Source of the DNA: Candidatus Saccharimonadota bacterium | GTDB taxonomy: Bacteria; Patescibacteriota; Saccharimonadia; Saccharimonadales; Saccharimonadaceae | Reading direction: 5' to 3' | DNA length: 32,000 bases | NCBI GenBank assembly: GCA_020160975.1 | Contig: JAIUPJ010000001.1 | Location: 540,001 to 572,000 of the forward strand | Part shown: piece by piece, positions 479 through 26,882 of the stretch | How positions within the stretch are numbered: the first letter of the stretch is position 1 | Layout: each line of letters opens with the position of its first letter | The notes under the pieces: generated by a model | What the model saw: the letters and a program-made list of their open reading frames with translations, nothing else | Told to the model about the DNA's origin: nothing | Databases searched by the model: none | Translations under genes and position numbers: made by a program

Positions 479-1915
479 TTATTTCGCGCCGGTTTTTCGC
501 AGTACGACACCAATTGTCTTAAATAAAATTCGTAGATCGAGCCAAAAGCTCCAGTTTTGAGCATAGTAGAGCTCGAGCTCTACGCGCTGGCTAAAGGCCA
601 GGTCGCTACGACCCGATACCTGCCAAAGGCCTGTTACCCCAGGGCGGACACTGAACAGAAGCGGCGCACGGTCGCTATAAAACTTCTTTTCCTCCTTGAT
701 GATAGGCCGAGGGCCGACGAGGCTCATATCGCCTTTTATGACATTGAGGATTTGAGCTACTTCGTCGAGTGAAGTCGCGCGGAGGAACTTACCAAACTTA
801 GTTATTCGTGGGTCATTTTCGATTTTGCGGGTTTTTTCGTACTCGGCCGCGAGGTCTTCACGGCCCATCTCACGAAATATTGTCGCCGCATCGGCGCCAC
901 AGTATTTCCAAATCATGGACCGAAACTTGTAAGTCTCGATTATTTCGCCATGAAGTCCGAGACGTGTACTCATGAAAAAGATAGGGCCAGGGTTGAAAAT
1001 CTTTTGAGCGATTGCGAGCAGGCCAAATAATGGAATCCAGAATATTGATGTAATTAAGACTACAAAGACGTCGAAGAAGCGTTTGAGGATTGCCCCCCAT
1101 CCAATCAACGGTGTCTGGCTCACGGTGATCATTGGGTAACCAAGGAAGACATCGACCGTGTTTTTGCCAGTGTAGAATTCGGGCTCGCCCGGAATGAAAT
1201 TGTACTGGATGTGACTAGTCTGGGCCGCACCCAAAATCAAGTGATTGCGATCCTCGCTGTCGTAGAGATCGGTCTGAATAATTGTCGTGATGCGTAATTT
1301 CTTGATGTCCTTGAGTGCTGCCTCTACGCGAGAATAATGTATGACGCCGAGGTGTGCAGGTAGCAAGCGGGCAGGCCCGGCGTAGGCAACGACTTGGTAG
1401 CCAGACTTGTGGTCACTGGCAAGAGAGTCGATGATATCGGTAGTGGCTGCAGAATTACCAATCACCATCACCCGGCTCACCCCACGCCCATATCGGTACA
1501 TTTCGTTTCGCACATCGCGGATAATTTCGCGCACAAGCATGATGGCAGCGGTTGAACCCAGCAAAACGTAAAGGGCAACCAGCCTCGCGGGAAAGATGTG
1601 AATATTGGTAGCATACTCCCAGCCAATCACCAGCAAGATACCTATGAACGTGCCAAGCATTATCCGGCTCCATTCGACGAGGCGACGACTATAGATATTG
1701 CTGCTGTAGAGACCGAGCGTAGCAAAAATCATAATCCAAACGGGTGCGATGATGACAAATCCTATCATGTATTCCATGGCATAGACGGTGTGAAGGAGCG
1801 CGCGTGGGTCGAGTTGTGTGCGGACAAAGTAGGCGATGGCGAAGACGCCAGCAAGAACCAGGATGTCTGCTGCCATCAGCACGAGACTATAGAACTTGGT
1901 GTTTTTAGAAGGCAT
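479..1915 (-). CDS. polyprenyl glycosylphosphotransferase (bacterial sugar transferase, WbaP/EpsB-like priming enzyme)
   Basis: 478 aa. N-terminal TM helices, then C-terminal sugar-transferase motifs: PGPIFF, KFRSM, DPRITKFGKFLRATSLDE, LVGPRP, RPGVTGLWQVSGRS. Confidence 0.9.
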   Translation of the reverse strand: MPSKNTKFYSLVLMAADILVLAGVFAIAYFVRTQLDPRALLHTVYAMEYMIGFVIIAPVWIMIFATLGLYSSNIYSRRLVEWSRIMLGTFIGILLVIGWEYATNIHIFPARLVALYVLLGSTAAIMLVREIIRDVRNEMYRYGRGVSRVMVIGNSAATTDIIDSLASDHKSGYQVVAYAGPARLLPAHLGVIHYSRVEAALKDIKKLRITTIIQTDLYDSEDRNHLILGAAQTSHIQYNFIPGEPEFYTGKNTVDVFLGYPMITVSQTPLIGWGAILKRFFDVFVVLITSIFWIPLFGLLAIAQKIFNPGPIFFMSTRLGLHGEIIETYKFRSMIWKYCGADAATIFREMGREDLAAEYEKTRKIENDPRITKFGKFLRATSLDEVAQILNVIKGDMSLVGPRPIIKEEKKFYSDRAPLLFSVRPGVTGLWQVSGRSDLAFSQRVELELYYAQNWSFWLDLRILFKTIGVVLRKTGAK

Positions 1916-1956
1916 AATGTGGTGGTATTATATCATTTTTCGCTACAATAGAGACA

Positions 1957-3282
1957 ATGAAGCACCTATCTCTGCCTCGTATCATTGCCGGCCTACTGCT
2001 TGTTATTTTCGGTCTGCTGGTACTACATGCGCCGCTGACGGTGTGGCTCACCGCACAGGGAGCGCCAGTGTGGGTAAAGGCATGGAAAGAGGTATTGCTT
2101 GGTGCGGCGGCTGTCATGCTAATGATTGACCTCATCAGACGCCACAAGGCGGATATACTGAACGATCGCTTGCTCTGGCTTATAGGTGGCTATGTGCTAC
2201 TTCATTGTGTCGTGGCATTTTTCGGCCAATCATCGCCCTACAGCCTGGGGGCAGGGCTGCTCATCGATCTGCGATATGTAGTGTTTTTTGCAACGGTATA
2301 TGTATTTTTACACGCATACCCACAATATAGACGTCGGTTTATAGTTGTAGTAATTGCTGGAGCAGGAATTGTCGTCGGCGTTGCCTTGCTGCAGCTCGTT
2401 CTGCCGCACGATGCGTTAAAGTATCTAGGTTACAGCGACGCAACAATTAAGCCGTATATTCTACTCGATGAAAACCCTCACTTTATTCGTATGAATAGTA
2501 CGCTGCGCGGGCCAAATCCGCTCGGGGCGTATGCAATGATGGTGCTGCTTGGAGTGGTCGCGTACGGCCTGGCGGTGGGGAGAAAACTAACAGACGGCCG
2601 TAAGAAAGCGCTTCATTTGTTCCTTGCAATTGGCGGTGCGGTAGCGCTATGGATAAGCTATTCTCGGAGTGCGGCGCTGGGCTTTGCAATCGGACTCATC
2701 ACGATGGTAGTGCTTCGGTATCGCAATCATCCGGTGCGGTGGCGGCAGTATATTACGACAGGACTTGTCATAGGTATGCTCGCACTTGCCGGGTACTCGC
2801 TTCGTGATACGGTATTTTTCAAGAACATCATACTCCACGACAACCCCACCACGGGTGCTGCGTATACCTCCGATCAAGGTCATAGCGATTCGCTGAAAGA
2901 GGGTATCGCAAAGATGTTGCAGCAGCCATTTGGAGCGGGTATCGGTAGCACCGGGTCGGCATCGATCGGCTCTCAAAGCCCGTTGGTAATCGAGAACCAA
3001 TATCTCATGGTAGCTCACGAAGTAGGTTGGTTGGGGTTGGCAATATTTGTGTGGTTGTGGGGCCTTGTACTTTGGCGACTATGGCGGGTTAAGCAAGACT
3101 GGTTAGCTACGACGGTACTGGCGAGCGGTGTAGGACTGGCGGCAATTGCATGTACATGGCCTGTGCTGGTCGATGACCCAGTGTCCATGATTTGGTGGGG
3201 ACTCGCGGCAGTCGCCCTAACGGTGCAAAAAGAATCGAAAGGAAAAAAGCATGGAACAACGACCCACAAAAAAGCAGCGTGA
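1957..3282 (+). CDS. O-antigen ligase / Wzy-like polytopic membrane protein
   Basis: 441 aa with many TM helices. Wzy_C-like loop WISYSRSAALGF. Divergent neighbour of the priming glycosyltransferase. Confidence 0.7.
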   Translation: MKHLSLPRIIAGLLLVIFGLLVLHAPLTVWLTAQGAPVWVKAWKEVLLGAAAVMLMIDLIRRHKADILNDRLLWLIGGYVLLHCVVAFFGQSSPYSLGAGLLIDLRYVVFFATVYVFLHAYPQYRRRFIVVVIAGAGIVVGVALLQLVLPHDALKYLGYSDATIKPYILLDENPHFIRMNSTLRGPNPLGAYAMMVLLGVVAYGLAVGRKLTDGRKKALHLFLAIGGAVALWISYSRSAALGFAIGLITMVVLRYRNHPVRWRQYITTGLVIGMLALAGYSLRDTVFFKNIILHDNPTTGAAYTSDQGHSDSLKEGIAKMLQQPFGAGIGSTGSASIGSQSPLVIENQYLMVAHEVGWLGLAIFVWLWGLVLWRLWRVKQDWLATTVLASGVGLAAIACTWPVLVDDPVSMIWWGLAAVALTVQKESKGKKHGTTTHKKAA

Positions 3283-3640
3283 GCTCCTGAGTTTTATTGA
3301 CGGATTTATCAAGGGCAACGGCTATGGGCCGAGCTATCGGGAAATCATGCGTGCGCTAGACTACAAAAGTGTGTCAACTGTCGCAACTCATGTCAATGGG
3401 TTGATCGCGCGCGGTTGGTTGGCAAAAAAAGACAATTCGGCTCGCACACTCGAGGTTGTAGGCGAGACGTCGCCGTCGGGTGCTGCTGCGGCATCATCAT
3501 CGACCGAGCAGGAGATTCGCCGCAAAATTGAAGAACTGCGCGGCCAGAACAATGACGAACATGCGGCAGCAATTGCGGCGTTGCTCACGACGCTTGATCT
3601 CTTGGGGTATGGGCCACGAGACGATACTACTCTTGCTTAG
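3251..3640 (+). CDS. LexA-type winged-helix DNA-binding protein lacking the S24 peptidase domain
   Basis: 129 aa. The N-terminus (KKQRELLSFIDGFIKGNGYGPSYREIMRALDYKSVSTVATHVNGLIARGWL) matches the LexA DNA-binding domain pattern. An Ala/Ser-rich linker and a short helical tail follow. No Ala-Gly cleavage site and no Ser/Lys peptidase module. Overlaps the upstream gene by 32 nt. Confidence 0.65.
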   Translation: MEQRPTKKQRELLSFIDGFIKGNGYGPSYREIMRALDYKSVSTVATHVNGLIARGWLAKKDNSARTLEVVGETSPSGAAAASSSTEQEIRRKIEELRGQNNDEHAAAIAALLTTLDLLGYGPRDDTTLA

Positions 3641-3657
3641 CAAGGTATAATAGAACT

Positions 3658-5370
3658 ATGCGAAAAGTGAAAACGTCTCTTGCGCGAGTCGTGCGCCGAC
3701 TGAAATCGTGGTCGCGGCGTGACTGGTTGCTGCGTGTTGGCGCGCCAGTTATCGGACTTATCATTTTCTTCCAACTATGCTATCCAGCCGACCGAATGTT
3801 GCCGTTTACTCGTGTGGACGGCGTCTCAGTGGCTGGCATGACACGTACCGCCGCCGCACAGTTACTCAACCAGGCGTACGATACTCATTCGATTGCGATT
3901 TACATGGGTGATGACAAAAAACCAGTGACATCGCCAACGCTTAAATCTGCTGGGATAAAAGTCGACAACACGCCACGCATAGAGCGCATGAATTACCCCT
4001 GGTATATGCGGCTGATTCCGACGTCATTGCTATGGGCTGGTCTCAAGACATCACCAGTCCCAGCTCCGGCATTTGGCGACAATTTTGACGCCTATGTCGA
4101 GGCCACGATCATGCAGAAGTGTCGTGAGGACCCGGTTAATGCCAGTCTCAAAGCAGCGGAAGATAAACTTGTCGTCGTGCCGTCAAAACGCGGTGGTCAG
4201 TGTGAGAAAAAAGATGTACTTGCTAGTATGAAAAAAGTTGCGCCAGTGGCAGACCGCGAGACGTCGATTCGCGTGGCACGAAAAGCAATTGCTCCGGCTG
4301 TTGATGACGATCAGGCAGCAGCTAAAGCCAAGGAGCTAAACGAGCGCCTGAAAGACGGGATTGGTGTCACTGTCAACGACACCGTGAAGGTTGCGCTCGC
4401 CAAAGATGCTTTGTCATGGCTTGATATCACAGTAAAAGATGACCATCTTGTCGCCACAGTAAGTCTAGAGCGTGCAGCGAGGTGGCTCGATGCGACGGTA
4501 GCGCCGGCTGTGGTGGTGAAGCCTGGTACATCGTACATTACGACCAAAGACTTTACTGAGACGTCGCGCCAAGACGGTGCTGCCGGACAAGCGCTCGATA
4601 TTGCAGGAACTTTTGCCCGCATACAAGAGGTGGTTGATGGTGTGCTGGCGCGTGCTGCAGTCGTTACGAAAGCCGTGCCGCCACTCGAGCAATATACCCG
4701 AACTTATAGCGCAAGTGATGCAGGGCTAACTGCGCTAATGACCAACTATGCCAAAGACCATCCGGGGACATTTGGCATTTCGATGGTCGAGCTCGATGGC
4801 AAAAAACGCCGCGCAGAGTATAACGGCACCAAGCAATTCGTAACAGCGAGCACCTACAAATTGTTTGTGGCATATAGTTTGATGAAACAAATTGACGCCG
4901 GAAAACGGGATTGGGATTCGAGTGCTGCATGTTTCAACAAAATGATTAGCCAGAGCGACAATGCCTGCGCGGAAAGTTTTCTCACAAGCCTTGGACTTAC
5001 GAATGTGACAAAAGATATCAATGCAATCGGGTTGAAAGATTCTAACTTTACGAAATCAGGTGGTCCGTATACGACGGCTAACGATCTCGCGCTGCTTACG
5101 GGTATGATAGCGACGGGCCAAAACTTTTCATCAGCCAACCAGCAGCGGTTGATTGCCGCGATGAAAGGCAATGTCTATCGTAATGGCATTCCAGCGGGTG
5201 CGGGCGGCACAGTTGCTGACAAGGTCGGTTTTATGGGCGGGTTGCTGCACGATGCGGCAATTGTCTACGGGCCAAACGGCACGTACGTGCTCGCCATCAT
5301 GACCGACGGCAGCAGCTGGGCGACAATCGCTGACTTGACTCGTCAGCTCGATACACTCCACGCTCAGTAG
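3658..5370 (+). CDS. membrane-anchored serine hydrolase (class A beta-lactamase / PBP-like fold)
   Basis: 570 aa with an N-terminal TM anchor (LLRVGAPVIGLIIFFQL). The C-terminal module carries S-x-x-K (STYK), SDN (QSDNACAE) and a K-x-G-like motif (DKVGF). Confidence 0.7.
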   Translation: MRKVKTSLARVVRRLKSWSRRDWLLRVGAPVIGLIIFFQLCYPADRMLPFTRVDGVSVAGMTRTAAAQLLNQAYDTHSIAIYMGDDKKPVTSPTLKSAGIKVDNTPRIERMNYPWYMRLIPTSLLWAGLKTSPVPAPAFGDNFDAYVEATIMQKCREDPVNASLKAAEDKLVVVPSKRGGQCEKKDVLASMKKVAPVADRETSIRVARKAIAPAVDDDQAAAKAKELNERLKDGIGVTVNDTVKVALAKDALSWLDITVKDDHLVATVSLERAARWLDATVAPAVVVKPGTSYITTKDFTETSRQDGAAGQALDIAGTFARIQEVVDGVLARAAVVTKAVPPLEQYTRTYSASDAGLTALMTNYAKDHPGTFGISMVELDGKKRRAEYNGTKQFVTASTYKLFVAYSLMKQIDAGKRDWDSSAACFNKMISQSDNACAESFLTSLGLTNVTKDINAIGLKDSNFTKSGGPYTTANDLALLTGMIATGQNFSSANQQRLIAAMKGNVYRNGIPAGAGGTVADKVGFMGGLLHDAAIVYGPNGTYVLAIMTDGSSWATIADLTRQLDTLHAQ

Positions 5371-5519
5371 GCATGCCTACCCATCCATCGTGAACATGTG
5401 ATTGTGTAAATTGACATAGAGACATCGGCCCCTGCACCAGAGTGTTTACACCTTAGAGCGAGTGAGGTAAAATAAACGATGTATCTATCACCAGATGATA
5501 GACGTACCTTACATTTTAT

Positions 5520-5594
5520 TCCGGCATAGCTCAGTGGTAGAGCGGATCGCTGTTAACGATTAGGTCGCTGGTTCGAGCCCAGCTGCCGGAGCCA
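5520..5594 (+). tRNA. tRNA-Asn (anticodon GUU), CCA encoded
   Basis: Hand-folded cloverleaf. Acceptor TCCGGCA/TGCCGGA. D arm GCTC-AGTGGTA-GAGC. Anticodon stem GATCG/CGATT with loop CTGTTAA (GTT at 5552-5554). T arm GCTGG-TTCGAGC-CCAGC. Discriminator G followed by CCA. Confidence 0.92.
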
Positions 5595-5849
5595 TGAATT
5601 AGATTCAGCACAAAAAGCCATCGTTTCGAATGGCTTTTTGTATTTCCACCTCAGTAAATCTCCGTCTAGTTCTAAGTTCGAGACTACAAGGTTTAGGATG
5701 CTACGCTTTTGTTCATGATTGGCCTTTTTAAATAGATTTTGGGCGTTGTGGGACAGTCTTAACAGATGAGAAACTGTTCCATAGTACTCGTCATTGGTAA
5801 GTTCGAGACTTTCTCTTTGCTCTTGCTTCAGTTTGATCTTCGAGTTGAA
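5556..5849 (-). pseudogene. in-frame C-terminal remainder of the serine recombinase (98 sense codons after the TAA)
   Basis: The same frame stays open for 98 codons: FNSKIKLKQEQRESLELTNDEYYGTVSHLLRLSHNAQNLFKKANHEQKRSILNLVVSNLELDGDLLRWKYKKPFETMAFCAESNSWLRQLGSNQRPNR. I checked every triplet by hand. The frame passes through the terminator hairpin and the 3' half of tRNA-Asn. It stops at the complement of anticodon-loop bases 5553-5555. Confidence 0.6.
5612..5639. terminator. bidirectional hairpin terminator between tRNA-Asn and the recombinase gene
   Basis: AAAAAGCCATCG-TTT-CGAATGGCTTTTT. About a 12-bp stem with one bulge. A-run and T-run flanks give a U-tract on either strand. Confidence 0.6.
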
Positions 5850-7028
5850 TTACTCAAACTTTCGGGTGTAGAAATCTTCAGATATTTTGTTATCCAAGTA
5901 GTCTTCATAAACCTTCTCTTTCCGTGACTGATATTTCTTGATTTCAGCTTCAATTGCAGTCATATCTGTTAGATACCGCTGTTTCTTTTCTTCGTGAGAT
6001 TTGCGTAGCGCTTCACTCACTTGAATGTACGCCTGCTTAGGGATGGAAATAGATTTTAGGATCTTCATTACTTGAATGGTGATCTTATCTTCATTTATGT
6101 AAGTGACATAGTGATCTTTTCTTTTGCTGGTGCAGTGACCATAAATGTACTTTTGCTTCTTAGTCTCAAATGTAATACCACAGCCACACTCGGCACACTT
6201 AATCAGTCCACGATAGGGAAAAGGTAAGCCACCCCACCTATGTGGTTTTACTTTGTATCCTTCGCGTACAGACTTAGCTTGCTCGAATAACGAGTAAGGG
6301 ATAAGAGGTTCGTATTTATGAGGGTATATATCACCCTTTACGCGCATCTCGCCGTAATAAAAGGGATTTTTAAGGAGCTGATCGATACGACTCGATCCTG
6401 CTTTAAGTCCATACTCACTGCGCCATTTCTTAGCGATTACAAGTAGGGAATAATTGCCGCTCGCGTACATCTCGAACGTTTTTCGAATGAGGCTGGCGGT
6501 CGTCGGATCGGGTTCGACCCATTTCTTGCCATCCTTGACCGTATTTAAATAGCCTATGGGCGCTCTGCCGCACCATTCGCCATCACGCCACTTCTGTTGA
6601 TTACGACGCTTTACGTTGTCGCTGATAGAGTCTGAATAGTATTGAGCCGTCGATACTCCCATATTAAGCATGAAGTGTTCTTGAGCAGATGAAGTTTTGC
6701 TGATGTAGAGGCTGTCGGACGGAAAGTGAATTTCAATTTTACCTGCTCGGCAAAGATTGTTTAAGAGACTTACTTCGTTGGAGTTTGAATTGCGTGTGTA
6801 GCGATCAATCTTATCAAATACAAGTATGGATATATCGGGTTGTGAAACGATTTGATCAATAATATCTTTGAAGCTTGCTCGATTACCCATATAGGCACTT
6901 TCTTTAATTTCAAAGAGCTCATATTCGAGATCTTTACGTGTGGCATAATCCTTTAGCCGGTATATCTGTCCGGGCAGCGCATCGGATTGATCGTCAGTCG
7001 ATACTCGTGCTATAAGGAATGCTTTCAT
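5850..7028 (-). CDS. large serine recombinase (integrase), ends at a premature in-frame TAA
   Basis: 392 aa. Resolvase-type catalytic N-terminus (FLIARVSTDDQ, catalytic Ser in RVS). Recombinase domain. Zinc-ribbon cysteines (CAECGCG...GHC). The start of the coiled-coil follows. AGGAG Shine-Dalgarno 6 nt upstream. The frame continues past the stop (next feature). Confidence 0.85.
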   Translation of the reverse strand: MKAFLIARVSTDDQSDALPGQIYRLKDYATRKDLEYELFEIKESAYMGNRASFKDIIDQIVSQPDISILVFDKIDRYTRNSNSNEVSLLNNLCRAGKIEIHFPSDSLYISKTSSAQEHFMLNMGVSTAQYYSDSISDNVKRRNQQKWRDGEWCGRAPIGYLNTVKDGKKWVEPDPTTASLIRKTFEMYASGNYSLLVIAKKWRSEYGLKAGSSRIDQLLKNPFYYGEMRVKGDIYPHKYEPLIPYSLFEQAKSVREGYKVKPHRWGGLPFPYRGLIKCAECGCGITFETKKQKYIYGHCTSKRKDHYVTYINEDKITIQVMKILKSISIPKQAYIQVSEALRKSHEEKKQRYLTDMTAIEAEIKKYQSRKEKVYEDYLDNKISEDFYTRKFE

Positions 7029-7050
7029 AAATTCTCCTACTTAAAATGGA

Positions 7051-7139
7051 CGGTTGTGGCTACCCAAAAAACACTGAGCTTTCTGGCACAACCGCCCATT
7101 AAGAGCAGAAAATAAAAACACAGTGTCGTTTTGGGTAGC
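7051..7139. repeat. interleaved inverted repeats in the recombinase 5' leader
   Basis: CGGTTGTG (7051-7058) pairs with CACAACCG (7087-7094). GCTACCCAAAAAACACTG (7059-7076) pairs with CAGTGTCGTTTTGGGTAGC (7121-7139), as 11 bp, an internal loop, then 5 bp. Confidence 0.6.
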
Positions 7140-7148
7140 TTCTTTATT

Positions 7149-7703
7149 CTACTGCTTTCCATAGCGCCTAGACAATATGTCCGAGGCAGATTCGGTGCGG
7201 TGATATCTTGCTGTGGTTTCTGTAGTGTTATCTGTAATAGATCGTTTGTTATCACCTAGCTCATCTTGGCGTTTTTCGCCTAATTTAATGTGTCCTTTTG
7301 TGAGAACTATGCCTTTTCGCTCCGCCTCTGATACCGTTACCTCAATGAGACGATTGTAATTCAAGCGGTAGTGCCGTTTTGCGGGTATACCTTTTCGGAC
7401 TACATCCAAAAACCCAAATTCCTTGCCTTTCTTAATGGCCAGTTTTTGCTGTGCCGATTTGAGACCAAGTTCCTTCACGAAATCTTTTTCGGTTTTAAAT
7501 ATATAGCCGTCCTTGCGAATTTCCATGCCCTTCCAGAACAATAATTGCGAGATCATTGCAGCTAGGGGGTACTTGAAAATTAATACTAATTTTGGTGGAA
7601 TTGGTTTCGGTTTTTCTTGACCGAATAGATCAAAGTAGCTTTTTTGGAGGGGTCTCAAGCCTCTTGGTTTGTTTTGGTTGTTGTACATCGATCTTCCTCT
7701 CAA
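7149..7703 (-). CDS. putative winged-helix DNA-binding protein (replication-initiator/RepA_N-like pattern)
   Basis: 184 aa. The segment YPLAAMISQLLFWKGMEIRKDGYIFKTEKDFVKELGLKSAQQKLAIKKGKEFGFLDVVRKGIPAKRHYRLNY resembles the wHTH of replisome-organiser/RepA_N proteins. Assignment by eye only. An alternative Met start lies at 7688. Confidence 0.4.
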   Translation of the reverse strand: MRGRSMYNNQNKPRGLRPLQKSYFDLFGQEKPKPIPPKLVLIFKYPLAAMISQLLFWKGMEIRKDGYIFKTEKDFVKELGLKSAQQKLAIKKGKEFGFLDVVRKGIPAKRHYRLNYNRLIEVTVSEAERKGIVLTKGHIKLGEKRQDELGDNKRSITDNTTETTARYHRTESASDILSRRYGKQ

Positions 7704-7826
7704 TCTCTGCGAGAACGTTAAAGAATGCGATTAATTGTTCTAGTTCGTTTGCATCCAACTTGTCCTGCATAAATAGCAGTTAAACAAGGCGGGGTGTCTG
7801 TTAATTACACGGACAAAAGTAAGGTG

Positions 7827-8354
7827 TTAATTTGGGTAAAACCAGAAAAACTCTTTGCCTTTAACGCTAAGAGTATCGATTTTCATTTCATCATGTAGTC
7901 TAGTTTTGATTCGATGTGCCGCTTCATATACTTTCCTTGGTGTATCTAGAGATTCATTACCCTTTTTTCTGAATGACTCCGCCACTTCTGTGCATTGCCA
8001 CTTTGTCGCGCGGGGTTTGCCTGACTTTATAACGAACATAGTTTTGAGAAGGTCATTTTCGATGGTGTTACTAAAATCAATTCGATAGTATTTCTCAACT
8101 GTTATTTCGGATGTTCTGCTATTGTAGCGAAGCCGTAGAAACCCTGAACGCATAAACATGATTGAGGACAGCGCATCATGCATCATGTCTAGTTTTTTGT
8201 TTGTTCTTGTCAGCTCTACTCTTAATTTCGTTTCGAGTACTTGAGACTGTATGACTTGAAAGTAAAGGTGCTTCACTACATCTCGAAGTGGAGCATTCGC
8301 AAACTGCCTGTCGGTCAATACTTCTAATAATTTATCTTCGTCTTTATTTGTCAT
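7827..8354 (-). CDS. hypothetical protein, possible C-terminal winged-helix
   Basis: 175 aa ORF in the element maintenance module. The C-terminal PRKVYEAAHRIKTRLHDEMKIDTLSVKGKEFFWF is loosely OmpR/trans_reg_C-like. Confidence 0.4.
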   Translation of the reverse strand: MTNKDEDKLLEVLTDRQFANAPLRDVVKHLYFQVIQSQVLETKLRVELTRTNKKLDMMHDALSSIMFMRSGFLRLRYNSRTSEITVEKYYRIDFSNTIENDLLKTMFVIKSGKPRATKWQCTEVAESFRKKGNESLDTPRKVYEAAHRIKTRLHDEMKIDTLSVKGKEFFWFYPN

Positions 8355-8428
8355 AGTCTAGTCTCTATCTACAGTATAGGCGATTTGTTATTATAGGAGA
8401 GTCTAAGTCAGTTGTAGCGAGTACAGCC

Positions 8429-8452
8429 ATTATTTGTATATTATTTGTATAT
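8429..8452. repeat. tandem 11-bp repeat ATTATTTGTAT x2.2 in a divergent promoter region
   Basis: Exact copies at 8429-8439 and 8440-8450, followed by a partial AT. The period equals one helical turn. Confidence 0.7.
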
Positions 8453-8522
8453 CGAGTGATTGTGTTCATAAATGGGCACCCACTCGACAAACAGTTCGGA
8501 CACAATCCCTACTGCTGGCTTA

Positions 8523-8548
8523 GACACCTAGAGCGGGTGTCCTTTTTT
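8523..8548 (+). terminator. intrinsic-terminator-like hairpin in the leader of the 8569 gene
   Basis: GACACC-TAGAGCG-GGTGTC followed by CTTTTTT. It lies about 20 nt upstream of the AAGGAGGG Shine-Dalgarno of the next gene. Confidence 0.4.
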
Positions 8549-8568
8549 ATTCCAGCAAAGGAGGGTAT

Positions 8569-9105
8569 ATGATAAAAGGCTTATTGATCAGTATTTGTGC
8601 AGTCATCGTTATTGGACTCTTATTCATGTTTCCAGGCGACACCATAAGTTCTGATGATATACACGACTACACGCTAAACAAAGCCTACCTTGCAAAAAAT
8701 ACCGAGCAGTATGCTCGATGTTACAATTCTGTAAATTACGGTACTTCAGGATTGACCGACATCGAACTTGCATTAATGAGTGAACATTTTAACGATCCAC
8801 GGGTTAGTTCCGAAACGATGAAGCCAATTGAGCAAAGCTTCATGAATGAAGTAAAACAAAAATGCGATAAATTCATCAATGATTACGAGTCTGCATATAA
8901 AAAAGTCGAAGCTATTCAGAGTAAATCCCAAAGTTTAAGGGTCGGATGGCGAACATTTGTGTTTGGTAGCGGGAATCAATCAATGCCATCTGGTGAAATT
9001 TTTCAATACAGCCCTTCGAGTGCTCGAATGAAAACATCTTTTAATGATTATGTTTTTACGGAGCAAGATGCAACTGAATATTTTAAGAAACAGCTAAATT
9101 TGTGA
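8569..9105 (+). CDS. hypothetical membrane-anchored protein
   Basis: 178 aa. Strong Shine-Dalgarno (AAGGAGGG). N-terminal TM helix LLISICAVIVIGLLFMF. No family recognised. Confidence 0.55.
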   Translation: MIKGLLISICAVIVIGLLFMFPGDTISSDDIHDYTLNKAYLAKNTEQYARCYNSVNYGTSGLTDIELALMSEHFNDPRVSSETMKPIEQSFMNEVKQKCDKFINDYESAYKKVEAIQSKSQSLRVGWRTFVFGSGNQSMPSGEIFQYSPSSARMKTSFNDYVFTEQDATEYFKKQLNL

Positions 9106-9166
9106 TTATTAGAGAGTATTTGGCATATAATTAAAACAACATGTCAAACAAAGTTAAGAGCGTATT

Positions 9167-10465
9167 GTGACTTCAAATGGCGCTACGTCAATATGGAGTG
9201 GCTACAACCATCAAGGTAGGGTTGGTCTATTTGTCGGCTTACGTGAGCTTAATAGATTAAAAGCGGCTGGAATTCAAGATTTCAGTAAATGGAAACTGAT
9301 ATTTGAGCTTGGCGAAGATTTCCAGATTATTCATGAGCTTGGCGAAGATTCTATTGAAGTCATATCTAGACATCAGGTGAAAGCGTATAACTCGACTGCA
9401 TTTTCAAAGTATTCTCATGTCTTCACTCGTCATCAGAAAAAGAACTCCAAGGATGAACTTATGACTAATGACGACGGAACTCCTCTTATGGAGGATGGAT
9501 TCAATGAAGATGGAGTGCCGGAGAGTGGTCGTTTTATTCATGTCATTAAAGATTTAGATATTAAGGGCTGGCAAAATGATTACGGTATTCAACTGTATGA
9601 ATATCCACCTAAAAAAGAGGGCGATTCACCTAAAAAGTATTGTGATTTCTCGAACTCAACAAGTTCCGATGACGAGCTGATGACATTGGCTATATTAGAG
9701 ATTGAGCGTGCTACCGGTAAGGGCACGGCTGAAGCGTCTTTAATTTGGAAGGAATTACAGCACAGCCTACAAGCCAGAATAAGTGTTGCACACCACACAA
9801 AATCTTTCGCTGAATATCAATTAGACGAGTTGCAAGCTGCTACCACTCAGCCTGAAGGTTTAGCTGCTTACGATGCCGACAAGAACCGCAGAAGCATATT
9901 GGAATACGCCGACGATTTTATAGGTGAACGGGAAGACCTGCCGACGTTCACTGACGCCGAGAGAGTTCGAGTTGTTAGGTATATCCAAGATCTTACTACG
10001 CTAAACAACGATTCTCTATTGGCGAGTCTGCGTTACCTTCATATAAATAATAGTAGGTTCTTAGACGTAAATAGTAACGGCATGAAAAAGGTTGTCTATG
10101 CAACGCTAAGTAAGATTGAAAGTCGTGAATATGAATCCAACTGCATTCAATACAATATTGATGGTTCATCCTATATTCTTACTGTCATTAATGAAATGAA
10201 GCAGGGGAATGATGATGCTCAGCAAGGAACAAATAAATGGCAGACGGAAAGAATTGTCCAGGCTTTGTTGGATAAGGATGTTGCACTAACTTTTAAAAAG
10301 GCAAAGATTGTTAACGAATCCTTGGACGCAAACTTTGATGAGCTTCTGGGTGAAGAACTCTTAACGTCTTTCATTGCAGGAAAGAAAGTGTATGACATTA
10401 TTGAACCGGCACCTTTAGAGTTCGTGTCTGTCGATAGGGCTATTAGCGAGATTAACGGAGAGTAA
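9167..10465 (+). CDS. Lamassu LmuA-like effector with N-terminal Cap4/DUF4297-type nuclease motif
   Basis: 432 aa with a GTG start. N-terminal G-Y-x-x-Q (SGYNHQGRVGL), acidic E-x-x-E-D block (FELGEDF / HELGEDS), then QVK. This is the pattern of Cap4-type PD-(D/E)xK nucleases. It is the first gene of a coupled trio. Confidence 0.55.
   Translation: MTSNGATSIWSGYNHQGRVGLFVGLRELNRLKAAGIQDFSKWKLIFELGEDFQIIHELGEDSIEVISRHQVKAYNSTAFSKYSHVFTRHQKKNSKDELMTNDDGTPLMEDGFNEDGVPESGRFIHVIKDLDIKGWQNDYGIQLYEYPPKKEGDSPKKYCDFSNSTSSDDELMTLAILEIERATGKGTAEASLIWKELQHSLQARISVAHHTKSFAEYQLDELQAATTQPEGLAAYDADKNRRSILEYADDFIGEREDLPTFTDAERVRVVRYIQDLTTLNNDSLLASLRYLHINNSRFLDVNSNGMKKVVYATLSKIESREYESNCIQYNIDGSSYILTVINEMKQGNDDAQQGTNKWQTERIVQALLDKDVALTFKKAKIVNESLDANFDELLGEELLTSFIAGKKVYDIIEPAPLEFVSVDRAISEINGE
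9304..9350 (+). repeat. 17-bp exact direct repeat TGAGCTTGGCGAAGATT, 30-bp period, inside the nuclease motif
   Basis: Copies at 9304-9320 and 9334-9350. They are in-frame and encode ELGED twice. Confidence 0.9.
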
Positions 10466-10470
10466 GGATT

Positions 10471-11184
10471 GTGGAAGATATAGTAGTCAAGCTTCTTGAG
10501 GCTAATGGATATAAGACTCTCGGTAGCATACCGGAAATAGGTATATATACATACGAATCCGAAATGCTAAAAGACGTAGTAATCGTTGCTCCGTATAGCA
10601 CAGGTGACTTAAATGCTTTTGAGAACTCTGATATAACTCACTCTGTAATGGATCAATTTGATTTGGCTTGTAAGCGTAATTCGAATGCCCTCAAAGACAC
10701 TTCATTAATAATTTGCCATAAGGTTGAGAACTCAATTGATATTGATGAGGCTAGAAATATTATTCTAAAAGTCGAAGAAAATACGTTTGGCTTTAGAAAA
10801 TATGTACTACCTTATACGACAGATTCGATCCAAGAGATTGCGAAACTAAGCTCAGGTGATATTACCCAAAACCTATCTGCAAAGTTGCAAGAAGGTTTTA
10901 GCTCATATGCAGAATCAAGTGCGGATAGTCAAATCTCAGAGTATGAAACAATTTTACGAATTTATAGTAAGCTTCCTTTCCTAAACTACATACGAGAAGA
11001 AAACGAGTGGGCTTCGCTAGAAGGCTTTCTAGAAGAGAAACTGAGCGTCCATCAATCTACCCGACAGATGGTCGAGCAATATAATTTAGATGAATCCTAT
11101 ACGGTTACGGATGATGAAATTGCGAAGTTTTTGGACACTGAGGTAATCAAGAGTTTCTTGGAATCCGGAGAGGGTGAGCAGTAA
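10471..11184 (+). CDS. Lamassu LmuC-like / ABC-3C middle-component candidate
   Basis: 237 aa acidic protein. Separated by 5 nt from the upstream gene and by a TAATG overlap from the downstream SMC-like ATPase. Assigned by position only. Confidence 0.45.
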   Translation: MEDIVVKLLEANGYKTLGSIPEIGIYTYESEMLKDVVIVAPYSTGDLNAFENSDITHSVMDQFDLACKRNSNALKDTSLIICHKVENSIDIDEARNIILKVEENTFGFRKYVLPYTTDSIQEIAKLSSGDITQNLSAKLQEGFSSYAESSADSQISEYETILRIYSKLPFLNYIREENEWASLEGFLEEKLSVHQSTRQMVEQYNLDESYTVTDDEIAKFLDTEVIKSFLESGEGEQ

Positions 11185-13805
11185 TGAATATAAAACTACA
11201 CAGTATTACGATTACTGACTTCAAGGGTATATCGGGTGAGCATGTTGTTGATCTTGAATCAGATATAACCTTCCTAAGTGGGCCAAATGGCTACGGTAAA
11301 ACAACTATTTACGATGCTATTGAACTATGTCTTACAGGCAAGATCTTGAGGATTGATGAAGCAAAAAGTGGAGAGAATGCAAGTAAAAGACATCAAAGGT
11401 CTATATTGCACAATGACCCAACAAAAGACATAAGAATCGAACTCGATGTTACATGCGAAGATGAAAGAAGAATTATTAAAGTTAAATGTGCGCGGGTTAT
11501 CGATAGGCAGCCGTTTATTGACTGGTCGGCTTTCCAGAGAAGTACTCATAGCATTGCAGGTGAACAGTTGGAAAGCGATGCTAAGTGGCCAAATTTATCA
11601 TCCGAAAACTATAAGTTATTTACTTATTTACAGCAGAGCGATAGCACCTTCTTTTTAAAGCTTGCGCAAAAGGCGAGGCATGACATCTTGACTCCACTGA
11701 TAGACGCCGGTGGTTATGAGGACGAGAGAAATAAGATTGAGCAGTTCAAGAAGAGGGTGGGTACATACAAAACTTATCTAAAATCTAAGCTTGATTCATT
11801 CGATACAACTCTAGACCAGCCATCGGGTGAGGCTATTGAATATGAGAAAATGATCAAAGCAGATGTTACGCAAGACTACGACAGCGCAAATCCTTTTGAT
11901 CGCTTAACAAGTGATCTTGCAAAAGTGAAACGGGCAGATCTAATACGAAAGCTTGATGAAATTGAAAGTTTTTTGAATAACTTCAGCCCAGACGATTACG
12001 TAAAAAGCGAACGGTATAAATTACTCACGAGATTTTCAAGAGACAAAGACTTCTTAAATTTCTTGGTTTTACGGAATGTAATGGATCAAGACAGTACGGT
12101 AAACACCTCTAGGGACAGAGTAAAGGTTCGTAATTTTACAAAAGATGTAACTATCCTAAGAAAATATATCTTGCGTAAAGAGTTAGCCTTAGATAGGTAT
12201 AACCAGCTTAAAGATGAGTCAGAAGTATTTTACTATCAGAATCGCGCTATTTTTATTGAAGACACAAAGCAGCGTCCAGTAGATGCAATATTGTCCTTCA
12301 TCGCTCAAGCAACCAATCAGTTTACGCCCGAAGAAAAACAAGACGCTACTAAGTATTTGGATGCATATAAGCCTATTGCGGAGTCTGTCGGCGTATATGG
12401 TAGACTCCTTTCGGAACTACAGCGGCTACGAAGCGAATTAATTGTGAACACCAAGACCCTTCATGATCATGACCATAATTTTGTAGAAGACAAATGTCCG
12501 TATTGCGGAGCTAAGTATACAACCCACCAGGAACTCATTGAATCAATTTCCAAGCAAACAGAAGAAGTCGAAAACCTAAAGGGTGAATCTGTTAAAAAAC
12601 TTTCGAGCTTAGAAAAGGAAATTAGAGATATTTTTGTTGCAGGTTTGATTAGTAACCTTTCTAAGTTTAAGCCTAGCGCACTTATATTTGAACAATTGAA
12701 ATCGACCGGTGCTCTAAGTAGGATAGACTTAGAACGTAATGAGTTAATAGATAAGGTGCTGCCCCAAGCAAGTAAAAGATTATCTCCAATTCAAGATTGG
12801 GAAACTAATATTCAGATTGTTGAATCAATAAGAAACTTGCAGCAATACATTGAAGAAAATACATCTCAAGGCGAGCTAGTCTTGGTTGATCTTCTAGATG
12901 AGCTTTATAGCAAAAACTACGATACCGAACTAGCTGTCTTATCTAGACTCAATTTTGAACTGAATGATGATCTTGTTGCGTCGTCTCAGCAAATGCCAAG
13001 TCTAGAGGATGTGATAGATAAGCAAGAGCGATTGAGTGAAATGCTAAGTCAAAAAGCGGCAACAATTGAATACAATCCCGGCTCAGTACTCGAGGAACAT
13101 GTTGCAATATATAAATCAATTTTCGACAGAAATAAGGAATATGTAGATTTCGCAAAGTCAAAAATTAAGGCAAAGCGGTTATATATAGATCAAGAGTATA
13201 GCAAGTCATTTGTAGAAAATAGAAAGCTTATAGAGTTAAAGCTTAAGCAAACAATTACACTTTCGTCTAAGGTTACTGGTCTTTTGGATATGTACAATGA
13301 GGCACTTAAAGAGTATCAGAAGAAAATCACTAAAGACCTGCAACTGCCTTTCTACTTGTACAGCTCAAAAATACTTCAAAATAGCCCACAATGTGATGGT
13401 ATATTTATGCACTCTCAAAAAGAAAGTAAGACCGTCGTGTTCACTACCGCTAGAGGCGAAACCTTAGATGCGGCTCATCAACTCAGCTCTGGGCAGCTTG
13501 TGGTGGTTTCTATGGCGTTCTATTTAGCGATGAACACAGTTTATCCGCAGAAGAGTACTAAACTTATGCTGATAGATGATCCAATTCAGGATCTAGATGT
13601 ACTAAACGTACATTCGCTTACCGAGCTTTTGAGGAGAAAGTTTATTGGTGAGTATCAGTTGATCATGTCTACGCATAATGAGTTAGATATAAACTATATG
13701 AGATACAAATTTAGTACTGCAATATCAAAAGATAGGATTAAGAATGTTAATGTGCAAGAACTATTCTTTGACACTGTTGCAAGTAATGATGAAAATGACT
13801 TATGA
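11184..13805 (+). CDS. Rad50/SMC-like ABC ATPase (LmuB-like) with central zinc hook
   Basis: 873 aa. Walker A GPNGYGKTT. CPYC at about residue 438, the midpoint of long coiled-coil-like sequence. ABC signature LSSGQ. Walker B LMLIDDP. H-loop STHN. Confidence 0.8.
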   Translation: MNIKLHSITITDFKGISGEHVVDLESDITFLSGPNGYGKTTIYDAIELCLTGKILRIDEAKSGENASKRHQRSILHNDPTKDIRIELDVTCEDERRIIKVKCARVIDRQPFIDWSAFQRSTHSIAGEQLESDAKWPNLSSENYKLFTYLQQSDSTFFLKLAQKARHDILTPLIDAGGYEDERNKIEQFKKRVGTYKTYLKSKLDSFDTTLDQPSGEAIEYEKMIKADVTQDYDSANPFDRLTSDLAKVKRADLIRKLDEIESFLNNFSPDDYVKSERYKLLTRFSRDKDFLNFLVLRNVMDQDSTVNTSRDRVKVRNFTKDVTILRKYILRKELALDRYNQLKDESEVFYYQNRAIFIEDTKQRPVDAILSFIAQATNQFTPEEKQDATKYLDAYKPIAESVGVYGRLLSELQRLRSELIVNTKTLHDHDHNFVEDKCPYCGAKYTTHQELIESISKQTEEVENLKGESVKKLSSLEKEIRDIFVAGLISNLSKFKPSALIFEQLKSTGALSRIDLERNELIDKVLPQASKRLSPIQDWETNIQIVESIRNLQQYIEENTSQGELVLVDLLDELYSKNYDTELAVLSRLNFELNDDLVASSQQMPSLEDVIDKQERLSEMLSQKAATIEYNPGSVLEEHVAIYKSIFDRNKEYVDFAKSKIKAKRLYIDQEYSKSFVENRKLIELKLKQTITLSSKVTGLLDMYNEALKEYQKKITKDLQLPFYLYSSKILQNSPQCDGIFMHSQKESKTVVFTTARGETLDAAHQLSSGQLVVVSMAFYLAMNTVYPQKSTKLMLIDDPIQDLDVLNVHSLTELLRRKFIGEYQLIMSTHNELDINYMRYKFSTAISKDRIKNVNVQELFFDTVASNDENDL

Positions 13806-13860
13806 ACTGATATCACGAAGACTTAGCAAAAATGCGATGAATTGAGAGGTTAATGTTTGA

Positions 13861-14109
13861 ATGAATTGGAATGAAATAAAAGATAAAAGTGGCAAATGCA
13901 AAATTATTGCAGATTTGAGCATATTGAAGGACTCTTATACACCAACGTCTGCTCAAGATATCATTGATAAAAAGGGTGTCGAAGCCTTTTATAAAGACGC
14001 AAGTAAGAAAATCCCGGAGAAATCAGTCGGGCGTAAGTTGGGCTATATTCGAGGGAATCCGGACATGTTAATTGATGTACATTATTCCATAAATCTTATA
14101 GGCGACTAG
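13861..14109 (+). CDS. hypothetical small protein
   Basis: 82 aa. GAGAGG Shine-Dalgarno-like upstream. Its stop is 1 nt before the GIY-YIG gene start. Confidence 0.45.
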   Translation: MNWNEIKDKSGKCKIIADLSILKDSYTPTSAQDIIDKKGVEAFYKDASKKIPEKSVGRKLGYIRGNPDMLIDVHYSINLIGD

Positions 14110-14110
14110 C

Positions 14111-14524
14111 GTGAATCAAGATACTAAAAAACACTGGACTCTCTACGTACTAAGACTTCAAGACGGTAAGTTTTATGTTGGCATAACTTCCAAAACACCT
14201 GAAAAAAGAATGCAGGAGCATTTGAATGGCGTGAGAGTTGCATACTGGACGGCAAAACATAAGCCGCTAGAAATTATCCATACGGAAGATCTAGGCGTGA
14301 TTGAGAAATCAAAGGCCGAGAAACGTGAAAATAAAATGGTGCGTGCACTTATGAAACAAAGAGGCCTGAACAATGTTCGAGGCGGCGACCTTACGTCTGT
14401 CGAAGAGTATATTAAGAGGTTTGGCTATATATGGGATAAGGATGGTTGGCAGCTAATTGCCTACATTGTTTTTCTATTACTTTTACTTTCCTACTTCGTA
14501 ATTGATAAATATTTTTTGAGATAA
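14111..14524 (+). CDS. GIY-YIG nuclease domain protein with C-terminal transmembrane helix
   Basis: 137 aa with a GTG start. WTLYVLRLQDGKFYVGITS...RMQEH...EKRENKM...NVRGG matches the GIY-YIG core. C-terminal helix WQLIAYIVFLLLLLSYFVI. Confidence 0.7.
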   Translation: MNQDTKKHWTLYVLRLQDGKFYVGITSKTPEKRMQEHLNGVRVAYWTAKHKPLEIIHTEDLGVIEKSKAEKRENKMVRALMKQRGLNNVRGGDLTSVEEYIKRFGYIWDKDGWQLIAYIVFLLLLLSYFVIDKYFLR

Positions 14525-14732
14525 AAAAATTTTGCGTGCACATCAAGTACAGAACTGAGATAAGTGAAAGGGAAGGTAGGGTGTCTTTTCTTTAGAGATA
14601 ATTTATACAGGGGGGAGTAAGCTCGCAAGCAGAGAGACAGAGCAGGTGCTGGAGACTTCTACCCCTGTTGAGTGTTTAAAATCGTTGCGAAGTACGTCCA
14701 CTAGCGTGAGCCAAGTGATTATTACAACACTA

Positions 14733-14761
14733 AGATCGAGTTCTGTAGACTCGATCTTTTT
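14733..14761 (+). terminator. rho-independent terminator between convergent operons
   Basis: AGATCGAGT-TCTGTAG-ACTCGATCT (9-bp perfect stem) followed by a T-run. On the minus strand it is followed by moderately U-rich sequence. Confidence 0.6.
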
Positions 14762-14908
14762 AAATTCTACCTCTGTAAAAACTATTCTAACTGACTTAGA
14801 CCATATTCTATCATGACAACTCAACACCGAATCGATAAACCATTCTCCTAAGACTGTACGATCGCCATTTTTTGCATAGCTAATGCGTCACCTTTGTATA
14901 CCTATTTT

Positions 14909-16207
14909 TTAGCTTCTCTTCAAAAGCAAATTAAAATACTCCGTTCCCCCAAAAGGTATCTTTTGTTTCACATGTCGGGTTCCTTCTAGAGTATCTGCAG
15001 AATAAATTGTAAATGTTCCATAGAAATCGTTGATCTCATCAATAGCTTCTGTTAAGTAGCTTTCTTTTTCGTTCACGCCGAATAGATCAAGCTGGGATCG
15101 GTTAGATGGTTCAAGATTGTAAAGATACATACCCATCGTCCGTACGACCATATGCTCGGGACGTTTATCAAATATTTTCGATACCCGCTCCCAAATATCT
15201 TCATTTGTATAGCAGGGTACCTTGTACGTTTTTTTATCAACAAATCCTCCGCCTGAATTAAACGATAACCACACGCACACGCTTCGAGCTTCCATGTTAC
15301 GAAACCGTAGTTTCTTAGCGGTTGTTTCCGCCAGGAAATGAAGGCATGAACGGAGATACGTGTCATCATTTGTAGGGTTCTTTACTACCCATTGGCGACC
15401 AACCATTCCAAGTGACGTCTGGATATCATCAACTTCAAAACCTCTCAGCCGTTTATACCAATACGTGCCATTAACGCTCCTAAATATTTGCCGCTTAAGT
15501 ATACTTTCTTGTGCCGCTAAAAATTGCATCGGAGTAAATATATTATGAGCTCGCAGGCGTGAACCATAGCCGTCGGCGATACCATTTAAATCTTGCAGTT
15601 CTAGCGACTCGTACACCTTCACTATATTAGTATGGTCGATAACATCTAATCCATCCGGCTTGTGCAGTCCAGCGGCGGTCTTAGCTAAAAATCGGTTTGG
15701 TGCAATTCCGACATTGATTGTCATATAATCACCAATCTCTTTTTTTACGCGCTCTTTTATCTCATAGCCGATTTTGACTATTTCATCCGTTTTCCCTTCG
15801 AGTAGTGTTCCATGAAAGTCGAGAATACCTTCGTCGATACTCTTCATCTTCACGTGCGGGGTGTAGTCTTTCATGATTGCACATAGCTTTTCATATACGT
15901 GGTGGTATTTTGGTGGATCAGTTTCGAGCATGATAAATTCAGGGCATTTTGCCAAAGCTTCTGTGCGGCGACATCCGACTTTTATGCCTAGTTTTTTCGC
16001 CTCGTAGCTTGCCGCGATAACACAACACTCCTTACTGAGCCTATTTGTTACACCAATCGGCTTACCTCTCAGCGAAGGATGAGCTTGCTGCTCGGCAGTC
16101 GCAAATGCACTATTAAGATCTATCCACATGACACTTGGCTTTTCAGTATTTAGTCCAAACGGATTACTCATCGGAAATCTCCTGGTATCATGCATACGAG
16201 TGTCCAT
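14909..16207 (-). CDS. Y-family (UmuC-like) translesion DNA polymerase
   Basis: 432 aa. WIDLNSAFATAE (UmuC-type D-x-N-S-F). SYEAKKLGIK. SIDEGILDF. C-terminal UmuC-like tail LTEAIDEINDFYG. Confidence 0.85.
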   Translation of the reverse strand: MDTRMHDTRRFPMSNPFGLNTEKPSVMWIDLNSAFATAEQQAHPSLRGKPIGVTNRLSKECCVIAASYEAKKLGIKVGCRRTEALAKCPEFIMLETDPPKYHHVYEKLCAIMKDYTPHVKMKSIDEGILDFHGTLLEGKTDEIVKIGYEIKERVKKEIGDYMTINVGIAPNRFLAKTAAGLHKPDGLDVIDHTNIVKVYESLELQDLNGIADGYGSRLRAHNIFTPMQFLAAQESILKRQIFRSVNGTYWYKRLRGFEVDDIQTSLGMVGRQWVVKNPTNDDTYLRSCLHFLAETTAKKLRFRNMEARSVCVWLSFNSGGGFVDKKTYKVPCYTNEDIWERVSKIFDKRPEHMVVRTMGMYLYNLEPSNRSQLDLFGVNEKESYLTEAIDEINDFYGTFTIYSADTLEGTRHVKQKIPFGGTEYFNLLLKRS

Positions 16208-17734: not shown

Positions 17735-17738
17735 CGGG

Positions 17739-18455: not shown

Positions 18456-18461
18456 CCAATC

Positions 18462-18470
18462 TGTTATAAT
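18462..18470 (+). promoter_or_regulatory. extended -10 element TGTTATAAT positioned for a leaderless NYN transcript
   Basis: TGnTATAAT match ending 6 nt before the ATG at 18477. No Shine-Dalgarno lies between them. Confidence 0.3.
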
Positions 18471-18476
18471 CAGGCC

Positions 18477-19082: not shown

Positions 19083-19103
19083 CGGCATAAAGAGGTAGTT
19101 AAA

Positions 19104-24050: not shown

Positions 24051-24052
24051 TC

Positions 24053-26437: not shown

Positions 26438-26523
26438 AATGATTCTCAGGAAGAGTAGACTGGGGTCGCGATAGACATGGCTACAAAGAGCACAGGGACC
26501 ACAAGGTTTAACCGCGTAAATGA

Positions 26524-26784: not shown

Positions 26785-26817
26785 AAATCCAGTATATCAC
26801 AAATATATACATATATA

Positions 26818-26846
26818 TTGACTAAAAACGTAGAATACGCTAAAAT
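26818..26846 (+). promoter_or_regulatory. sigma70-like promoter TTGACT-17 nt-TAAAAT for the HTH-Panacea operon
   Basis: -35 at 26818-26823 and -10 at 26841-26846 with exact 17-nt spacing. An alternating AT near-palindrome (ATATATACATATATAT) abuts the -35. Confidence 0.45.
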
Positions 26847-26882
26847 AAAGATATCAACAACATAATCGAGTGGGGCAAGGTT

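Follow-up and report, generated by a model that had tools for sequence, protein, structure and literature searches.

Large serine recombinases (serine integrases) are prized as tools for genome engineering and are usually described as avoiding tRNA genes as targets. The CcrAB/CcrC serine recombinases of the staphylococcal cassette chromosome (SCCmec) insert islands at the extreme 3′ end of rlmH (orfX) without destroying this gene, and repeated insertion gives tandem composite arrays bounded by short repeats. Elements whose attachment (att) site, attP, lies within one of their own genes are known for tyrosine integrases, namely the fusellovirus SSV1, where attP is inside int and the gene is split on integration, and the integration-dependent immunity systems of mycobacteriophages, where attP is in the repressor gene and a degradation tag is removed. 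Among Mycobacterium prophages, it is the tyrosine integrases that insert at tRNA sites, with serine integrases inserting elsewhere (PMC10654092). Herein we describe a locus in a 32,000-nucleotide stretch of a Candidatus Saccharimonadota bacterium (GenBank assembly GCA_020160975.1, contig JAIUPJ010000001.1, positions 540,001 to 572,000; hereafter “the window”), part of a Saccharibacteria-type genome of 971,550 bp, in which a 9.1 kb genomic island at a tRNA-Asn(GTT) gene carries a large serine recombinase gene (int) whose frame is broken by an in-frame TAA and runs on into that tRNA. In our reading, the attachment site of the island overlaps the end of its own integrase gene and the island has been frozen by a nonsense mutation, an account to which, taken as a whole, we assign a probability of about three in four.

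The features at the int end of the island are as follows:

5520..5594, plus strand: tRNA-Asn(GTT), complete, with encoded CCA, the chromosomal target; anticodon at 5552-5554 (ARAGORN; Rfam RF00005, 69.6 bits)
5553..7028, minus strand: large serine recombinase pseudogene, 491 codons plus final stop, broken at codon 393 (Pfam, homologues, Foldseek)
5850..5852, minus strand: nonsense TAA in place of GAA (Glu393), the same codon being present in loci L100, L101 and L102
5589..5594: attL identity block GAGCCA, spanning the acceptor-stem end, the discriminator base and the CCA, on the int strand TGG CTC, that is W479-L480 (shared island-end sequence; 52 junctions)
5612..5639, plus strand: candidate terminator hairpin with T-run on the tRNA strand, 18 nucleotides (nt) after the CCA and within int codons 464-473 (RNAfold -16.7 kcal/mol, z -4.5)

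The open reading frame (ORF) of the recombinase runs on the minus strand from 7028 to 5853 (392 codons) and is closed by the TAA at 5850-5852, past which the same frame stays open for 98 more sense codons (394-491) until a second TAA at 5553-5555, in agreement with the preliminary description of this DNA, made from its letters and ORFs only. The combined length given there, 490 amino acids (aa), needs correction, as the read-through counts 491 aa, with the first base of its last sense codon at 5556. Over its final part the frame traverses the hairpin at 5612-5639 and reads the last 39 nt of the tRNA in antisense, and its final TAA is the complement of U35, U36 and A37 of the anticodon loop. 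Apart from the length and the position of this last stop (5553-5555), the preliminary description is accurate. No in-frame start is present downstream of the TAA at 5850-5852 in the ORF list or the read-through extension, which rules out a separately translated C-terminal fragment.

By domains, fold and descent, the gene is a large serine recombinase, whose product in the window is incomplete in its coiled coil. Within the 392-aa part, PF00239 (Resolvase) matches residues 4-151 (E 1e-16), and PF07508 (Recombinase, E 1e-09) and PF13408 (Zn_ribbon_recom, E 4.7e-07) both score above their curated cut-offs. A resolvase-type catalytic domain with its nucleophilic serine is present (R8 and S10 are invariant in 52 homologues), as is a cysteine zinc ribbon after the recombinase domain (C278, C281 and C299, invariant in the same set). 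A search with the read-through sequence (X at the stop) returned 1969 relatives, the best of which are 491-493 aa long and align with the whole of the query at up to 93% identity. Intact homologues match the 98 extra codons along their entire length, and the open frame beyond the TAA thus exceeds what chance would give. The AlphaFold model that we used is that of an intact homologue 93% identical to the window int, and not of the window allele (predicted local distance difference test, pLDDT, 82.7). It shows a coiled coil of two helices (331-378 and 384-407), after which come two helices, a beta hairpin and a final helix that reaches residue 476, while residues 481-491 have a pLDDT below 50 and are predicted to be disordered. 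Foldseek matched this model with probability 1.0 (E 4.5e-19 to 1e-11) to 9dxh, Bxb1 (9iu2), PhiC31 (9rah) and LI (4kis), the top matches being full-length serine integrase complexes, including the SPbeta type. Sequence identity to the solved serine integrases is 10-16%; a whole-protein sequence search of the PDB gave no match, and a profile search matched catalytic domains only.

The TAA replaces a near-invariant residue, position 393 being Glu in 48 of the 52 homologues. The five closest loci have GAA there, from which the window differs by a single G-to-T change. The 570-aa product of a neighbouring gene is present on 17 contigs, and three fetched loci (L100, L101 and L102) include the int region; over the 1901 bp spanning it, TAA included, these are 100% identical to the window. 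They derive from two European Nucleotide Archive samples and one Joint Genome Institute sample, from at least two projects. Because the TAA recurs in identical DNA of three other assemblies, an error private to the window assembly is very unlikely. Measured against the closest intact genes, the ratio of nonsynonymous to synonymous substitution rates (dN/dS) is 0.03-0.04 before the stop and 0.05-0.10 in the 85 codons downstream of it; these 85 codons have been under the same purifying selection as the upstream part, and the nonsense mutation is recent. In the whole family, which we followed through 80 loci from genome contigs (all of them Saccharibacteria or related Patescibacteria metagenome-assembled genomes, MAGs), 75 of the 80 genomic copies are intact from end to end, and the TAA allele is therefore an exception.

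With regard to function, the TAA falls within the second coiled-coil helix (384-407), leaving the window allele without a complete coiled-coil motif, and removes 88 conserved residues. The Listeria LI integrase deprived of its coiled coil showed no activity on any pairing of sites and retained binding to att sites (PMC3783163). With half of the coiled coil and 88 conserved residues gone, the window enzyme should fail to synapse and excise, leaving the island immobilised, and by analogy with other integrases it is almost certainly inactive. The earlier suggestion of an inactivated or truncated integrase and a locked island fits these observations, and the gene is well supported as an ordinary case of pseudogenisation.

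The far end of the island comprises three further features:

14525..14707: conserved distal island end (L005 identity; in-silico circle), with the P-arm motif at 14684-14707 and the circle-form codons at 14707..14606 on the minus strand, followed by a stop at 14605..14603
14708..14713: attR identity block GAGCCA, bearing the only P-arm motif of the genome
14732..14763, plus strand: hairpin terminator just beyond the island, 11 pairs plus T-run (terminator scan)

The island covers 5595-14713, directly at the 3′ end of the tRNA, and has a guanine-cytosine content of 0.39, compared with 0.51 to the left of the tRNA. A sister contig (L005) matches the window over 479-7119, then only over 14525-14715, and again from 14914 onward. 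The middle match is 80% identical and stops just past the GAGCCA at 14708-14713, with a hairpin terminator next in both contigs. This hexamer, found at 5589-5594 and 14708-14713, is the only sequence common to both island ends, and the distal P-arm motif has a single occurrence in the whole genome, at attR. There is no second copy of the tRNA-Asn 3′ half in the whole genome (32 nt, up to 3 mismatches) and no tRNA repeat among the direct repeats of the window, by which an element-borne tRNA 3′ half is ruled out here.

Across the family, 69 of the junctions between int and the adjoining DNA were readable, and they fall into the following classes:

52 loci: TGG coincides exactly with the CCA of a tRNA in convergent orientation (38 Asn, 5 Gln, 3 Asp, 3 Arg, 2 Trp, 1 Gly)
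9 loci: a tRNA-like 3′ half missed by ARAGORN (four with a group I intron, Rfam)
3 loci: a clear distal-arm motif directly after TGGCTC
5 loci: unclassified, most resembling degenerate arm motifs after the core

On this comparison the crossover must lie within the last six bases of the tRNA (GAGCCA), at codons 479-480 and 12 codons before the stop of the integrated form, and it is within this block that we infer the exchanged dinucleotide to be. The preliminary description had placed the att crossover inside the 3′ end of int, with the C-terminus rewritten by integration, and both statements stand, although the position is at the last six tRNA bases and not in the T-arm or anticodon region. 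In the integrated form, L480 is followed by 11 tRNA-derived codons, while in-silico joining of the island ends makes int continue past L480 for 34 codons, read from 14707..14606. A natural tandem on one MAG contig serves as a control for this joining: the int of locus L049 (50% identical) is immediately upstream of a second element, L020, whose own int is 93% identical to that of the window, and after its W-L the L049 gene enters the distal (P) arm of the L020 element and acquires the same 34-codon tail as in the in-silico circle.

Neither of the two tails seems to be selected as protein. In several homologues where the tRNA complement contains a stop, the ORF closes after 3-9 tRNA-derived residues; as the ORF ends vary with such chance stops, the tRNA-derived tail appears to be a by-product. 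So does the circle-form tail, for which dN and dS are about equal (0.17/0.23, 0.17/0.16 and 0.09/0.12), which rules out a conserved functional peptide. Taken with the pLDDT below 50, these values and the internal stops make the swapped tail look functionally neutral. A scan of metagenome contigs with a degenerate 32-nt pattern (attL, attR, attB, attP) found neither an empty attB nor an excised circle of the window strain, and returned only an attL copy and attR-like sites of other genomes. At empty sites within the same genus, the right flank could not be aligned (the DinB gene is elsewhere there and the flanks are ~70% identical), and a family-alignment search of the IMG/VR viral contigs gave no relative.

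Integration would displace the native terminator of the tRNA to the far end of the island, and for this reason the hairpin at 5612-5639 is most likely its replacement, as judged from folding energy and covariation. The stem is kept in three int subfamilies by differing sequences, through paired changes of nucleotides and amino acids (compensatory changes), and the protein motif shifts in step with it (KKPF..MAF, KEPF..MVL and KAPF..ECS); the T-run is retained in the tRNA direction only. The hairpin at 14732-14763 would then probably be the native tRNA-Asn terminator in its displaced position, and an equivalent layout is seen in relatives at tRNA-Asn sites that look empty.

The P-arm motif gives a view of how sites may be recognised. 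It is present at 33 distinct sites in other loci, conserved for ~30 bp beyond the core, and the core tracks the tRNA type. Its inner part matches the tRNA acceptor and T-stem without any shift at 7 of 12 positions, whereas for its outer part the best match to the T-loop comes after a displacement of 5 bp outward (5 of 8 positions, vs at most 4 at other shifts). Half-sites in attP and in attB of the LI integrase are related by the same 5-bp outward shift (PMC3783163). As the numbers are small, we take the resemblance of the P-arm/tRNA relation to the LI sites only as suggestive. Should it be confirmed, the occurrence of these elements at six tRNA species would be explained by recombinase contacts to the CCA end and to the T-loop, which is universal. 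A wider proposal for the clade follows these lines, and we regard the evidence as evenly balanced for it: the recombinases would target generic tRNA features, with the crossover at the acceptor end/CCA, the zinc ribbon on the T-loop and a P arm imitating the tRNA arm with 5 bp of spacer added; they would hop between Asn, Gln, Asp, Arg, Trp and Gly tRNAs, keep attP in the last int codons together with a hidden replacement terminator, and by repeated insertion and decay build arrays of small cassettes downstream of the tRNA, bounded by attR-like sites.

For the window itself, we propose that the recombinase inserted the island at the 3′ end of tRNA-Asn(GTT) by a crossover inside GAGCCA, where the attachment site would overlap the final codons of the recombinase’s own gene. 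The tRNA would remain intact, with its native terminator pushed to the far island end and the hairpin in codons 464-473 taking over, while the int frame would run on through the tRNA in antisense until the anticodon loop supplies a stop. In a circular form, by contrast, the frame would be extended by 34 codons read from the opposite end of the island. In the window strain, a recent G-to-T change would then have turned Glu393 (GAA) into TAA and immobilised the island. Several points weigh against this account. The inactivity of the integrase is deduced from other integrases, and it is conceivable that the intact paralogue which this genome has at tRNA-Gly acts in trans. A simple consensus terminator scan did not call the hairpin at 5612-5639. 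As no empty attB and no circular attP of this strain was found in the contig scan, the position of the crossover is drawn from comparing junctions; the identity block is just 6 bp long, the half-sites show little palindromic symmetry, and the match at the 5-bp shift is weak (5 of 8 vs at most 4). Finally, in locus L079 int is followed by 27 nt of a tRNA 3′ end at a distance from the real tRNA, as would fit an element-borne piece.

Three other explanations have to be weighed. One holds that the TAA does not inactivate the enzyme, be it through an assembly error, readthrough, or a 392-aa protein that still functions in DNA binding, in repression or, with the aid of a paralogue, in recombination. 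The 98 codons past the stop are indeed undamaged and free of relaxed selection, and the truncated protein retains the catalytic, recombinase and zinc-ribbon parts. Yet the same TAA is found in three other assemblies, recoding of TAA is not known in this group, table 11 gives normal ends for the other genes in the window, and what is lost is the second coiled-coil helix plus 70 conserved residues beyond it. The LI integrase cuts both ways, since its coiled-coil deletion still bound att sites and was inactive on every site pairing (PMC3783163). The intact paralogue at tRNA-Gly offers a possible helper, although it is merely 31% identical and is located at a tRNA with a different 3′ end; on balance we judge a non-inactivating TAA unlikely.

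The other two explanations concern the C-terminus. A classical tRNA island, in which the element brings its own tRNA 3′ half, crosses over in the anticodon or T-loop and keeps the tRNA-derived codons fixed in both states, would account for the coincidence of the int stop with the anticodon loop, for the tRNA-derived tail in most family members and for the L079 fragment. It seems quite improbable given that the genome has no second tRNA 3′ half even at 3 mismatches in 32 nt, that junctions which do not abut a tRNA diverge immediately past TGGCTC, that the similarity between the sister islands stops at the 6-bp block, and that some homologues contain stops inside the tRNA-derived part. Alternatively, the two C-termini could be a regulatory device, by which circular and integrated forms differ in stability or directionality in the manner of mycobacteriophage integration-dependent immunity. 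The tail does change with the integration state, the 34-codon circle-form tail has an equal length and end in three elements, and the distal 190 bp are the only cargo-side DNA conserved between the sister islands; against this, dN is close to dS in the circle-form tail, length and sequence vary widely across the family, stops sometimes shorten the tRNA-derived tail to 3-9 residues, and the tail is predicted to be disordered, which makes a regulatory role very doubtful.

The cargo of the island and its surroundings were annotated as follows:

7149..9105: three small genes, of 184 aa and 175 aa (minus strand) and 178 aa (plus strand) (ORF list; weak DUF5343 match only)
9167..13805, plus strand: ABC-3C conflict/defence module, with CTD1 protein, MComp1 and SMC-like ABC ATPase (PF20276, PF20289, PF13476, PF02463)
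14111..14524, plus strand: GIY-YIG domain protein (PF01541)

The ABC-3C module is made up of three consecutive genes, and the same trio is present in the sister island L005, where the cargo is a non-alignable version of it and an extra methyltransferase gene lies between the island end and DinB. Comparison of the two contigs over 479-7119 and 14525-16194 of the window showed 98% identity over 5 kb of left flank, 86% identity in int (dS > 1) and cargo that cannot be aligned; such a near-identical flank beside divergent int and cargo implies that related elements have replaced one another at tRNA-Asn in close strains, and the island is a mosaic that was replaced rather than inherited. In the distal part, the ~160 bp at 14525-14683 are 80% conserved with L005 while other cargo is not alignable, which exceeds the 25-30 bp of a recombinase half-site. 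They match no Rfam family, and their role could be in regulation, in binding of a directionality factor or simply in forming the end of int in the circle form. On the right-hand side, the DinB gene and type I restriction genes are outside the element by the P-arm criterion. The region 16814-29553 encodes DUF5655, RadC, NYN, a SocA/Panacea antitoxin-like helix-turn-helix protein and DUF2779, as well as a type I restriction-modification set into which a HATPase gene is inserted, and no further P-arm motif assigns these defence-type genes to this element.

Other loci show additional forms of the same architecture. Downstream of the tRNA, some carry 2-4 attR-like sites per locus, 0.4-2.3 kb apart and with 1-2 small genes between them (L106 6840-8345; L105 1966-3630; L048 2252-5610; also L043, L050, L057 and L031), each site consisting of the conserved P-arm motif, a tRNA-end core and a hairpin terminator. 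Such arrays might be what tandem insertions left behind as they decayed, or else small cassettes that are mobilised in trans. The genome of the window has two further members of the wider recombinase family (L003, C1:840604-842058; L004, C1:864920-866209). Of these, one is the intact, 31% identical paralogue, which ends three codons into tRNA-Gly(GCC), and the other is interrupted by a TAG. In several Saccharibacteria genomes, tRNA-Asn(GTT) is interrupted between anticodon positions 35 and 36 by a group I intron matching Rfam RF00028 at 70-96 bits (L009 834-1069, from the relative G004; G014 C1:913766-914070; L034, L053, L058 and L059 at ~11486-11765). ARAGORN misses these split tRNAs, and the adjacent int ORF runs a few codons into the intron and does not stop at the anticodon loop.

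The locus thus presents a defence island at the tRNA-Asn of the window genome, bounded to the base and, on our reading, frozen by a nonsense mutation. The clade to which its integrase belongs is large and mostly intact and sits, without damage to them, on the CCA ends of several tRNAs, natural landing sites that are conserved across species; it is also a clean case for studying shifts in site specificity. A coding sequence that would double as a tRNA terminator, maintained through paired nucleotide and amino-acid changes, illustrates compactly how the same DNA can be under two constraints, and such elements appear to be a main route by which the ultra-small Saccharibacteria genomes gain and exchange defence genes. 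Our literature search, which was not exhaustive, turned up no account of Saccharibacteria serine integrases at the ends of tRNAs, an absence that is weak evidence by itself.

When compared with known systems, the recombinase has the same domain order (catalytic, recombinase, zinc ribbon with embedded coiled coil) as PhiC31, Bxb1, the Listeria A118/LI integrases and SprA of SPbeta. As for the serine integrases of phages and integrative and conjugative elements (ICEs), its att sites appear to be short with few shared bases, and the P half-site would be ~25-30 bp long, with an outer motif that may lie 5 bp farther out than in B, as in the LI sites (PMC3783163). Unlike in those elements, the target is the CCA end of a tRNA rather than a protein-coding or intergenic site, attP overlaps the last codons of int, and the half-sites are not clearly palindromic. 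The nearest known behavioural analogue is SCCmec, which likewise inserts at the end of a housekeeping gene and forms arrays comparable to the attR-like arrays here; its target is, however, a protein gene and its recombinase gene lies inside the element, away from att, whereas the present island targets a tRNA and has a recombinase ORF that spans the junction. The att sites within genes of SSV1 and the mycobacteriophages are similar in that integration alters the coding sequence of an element gene, but in our case only a short, apparently unselected tail is exchanged. Tyrosine-integrase islands at tRNA genes (P4-like islands, and ICEKp1 at tRNA-Asn; PMC13023037) share an int beside the tRNA 3′ end, a preserved tRNA, defence cargo and reuse of the site. 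In P4-like and ICEKp1 islands, direct repeats copy the 3′ part of the tRNA over 15-50 bp or more, while here 6 bp are shared and there is no displaced fragment. Both hallmarks of the classical tRNA island therefore fail at this locus, the adjacent gene being a serine and not a tyrosine recombinase and a direct repeat of a tRNA fragment being absent, and a serine integrase gene that reads into its target tRNA is a little-described design, a variant on known types of integrase and island.

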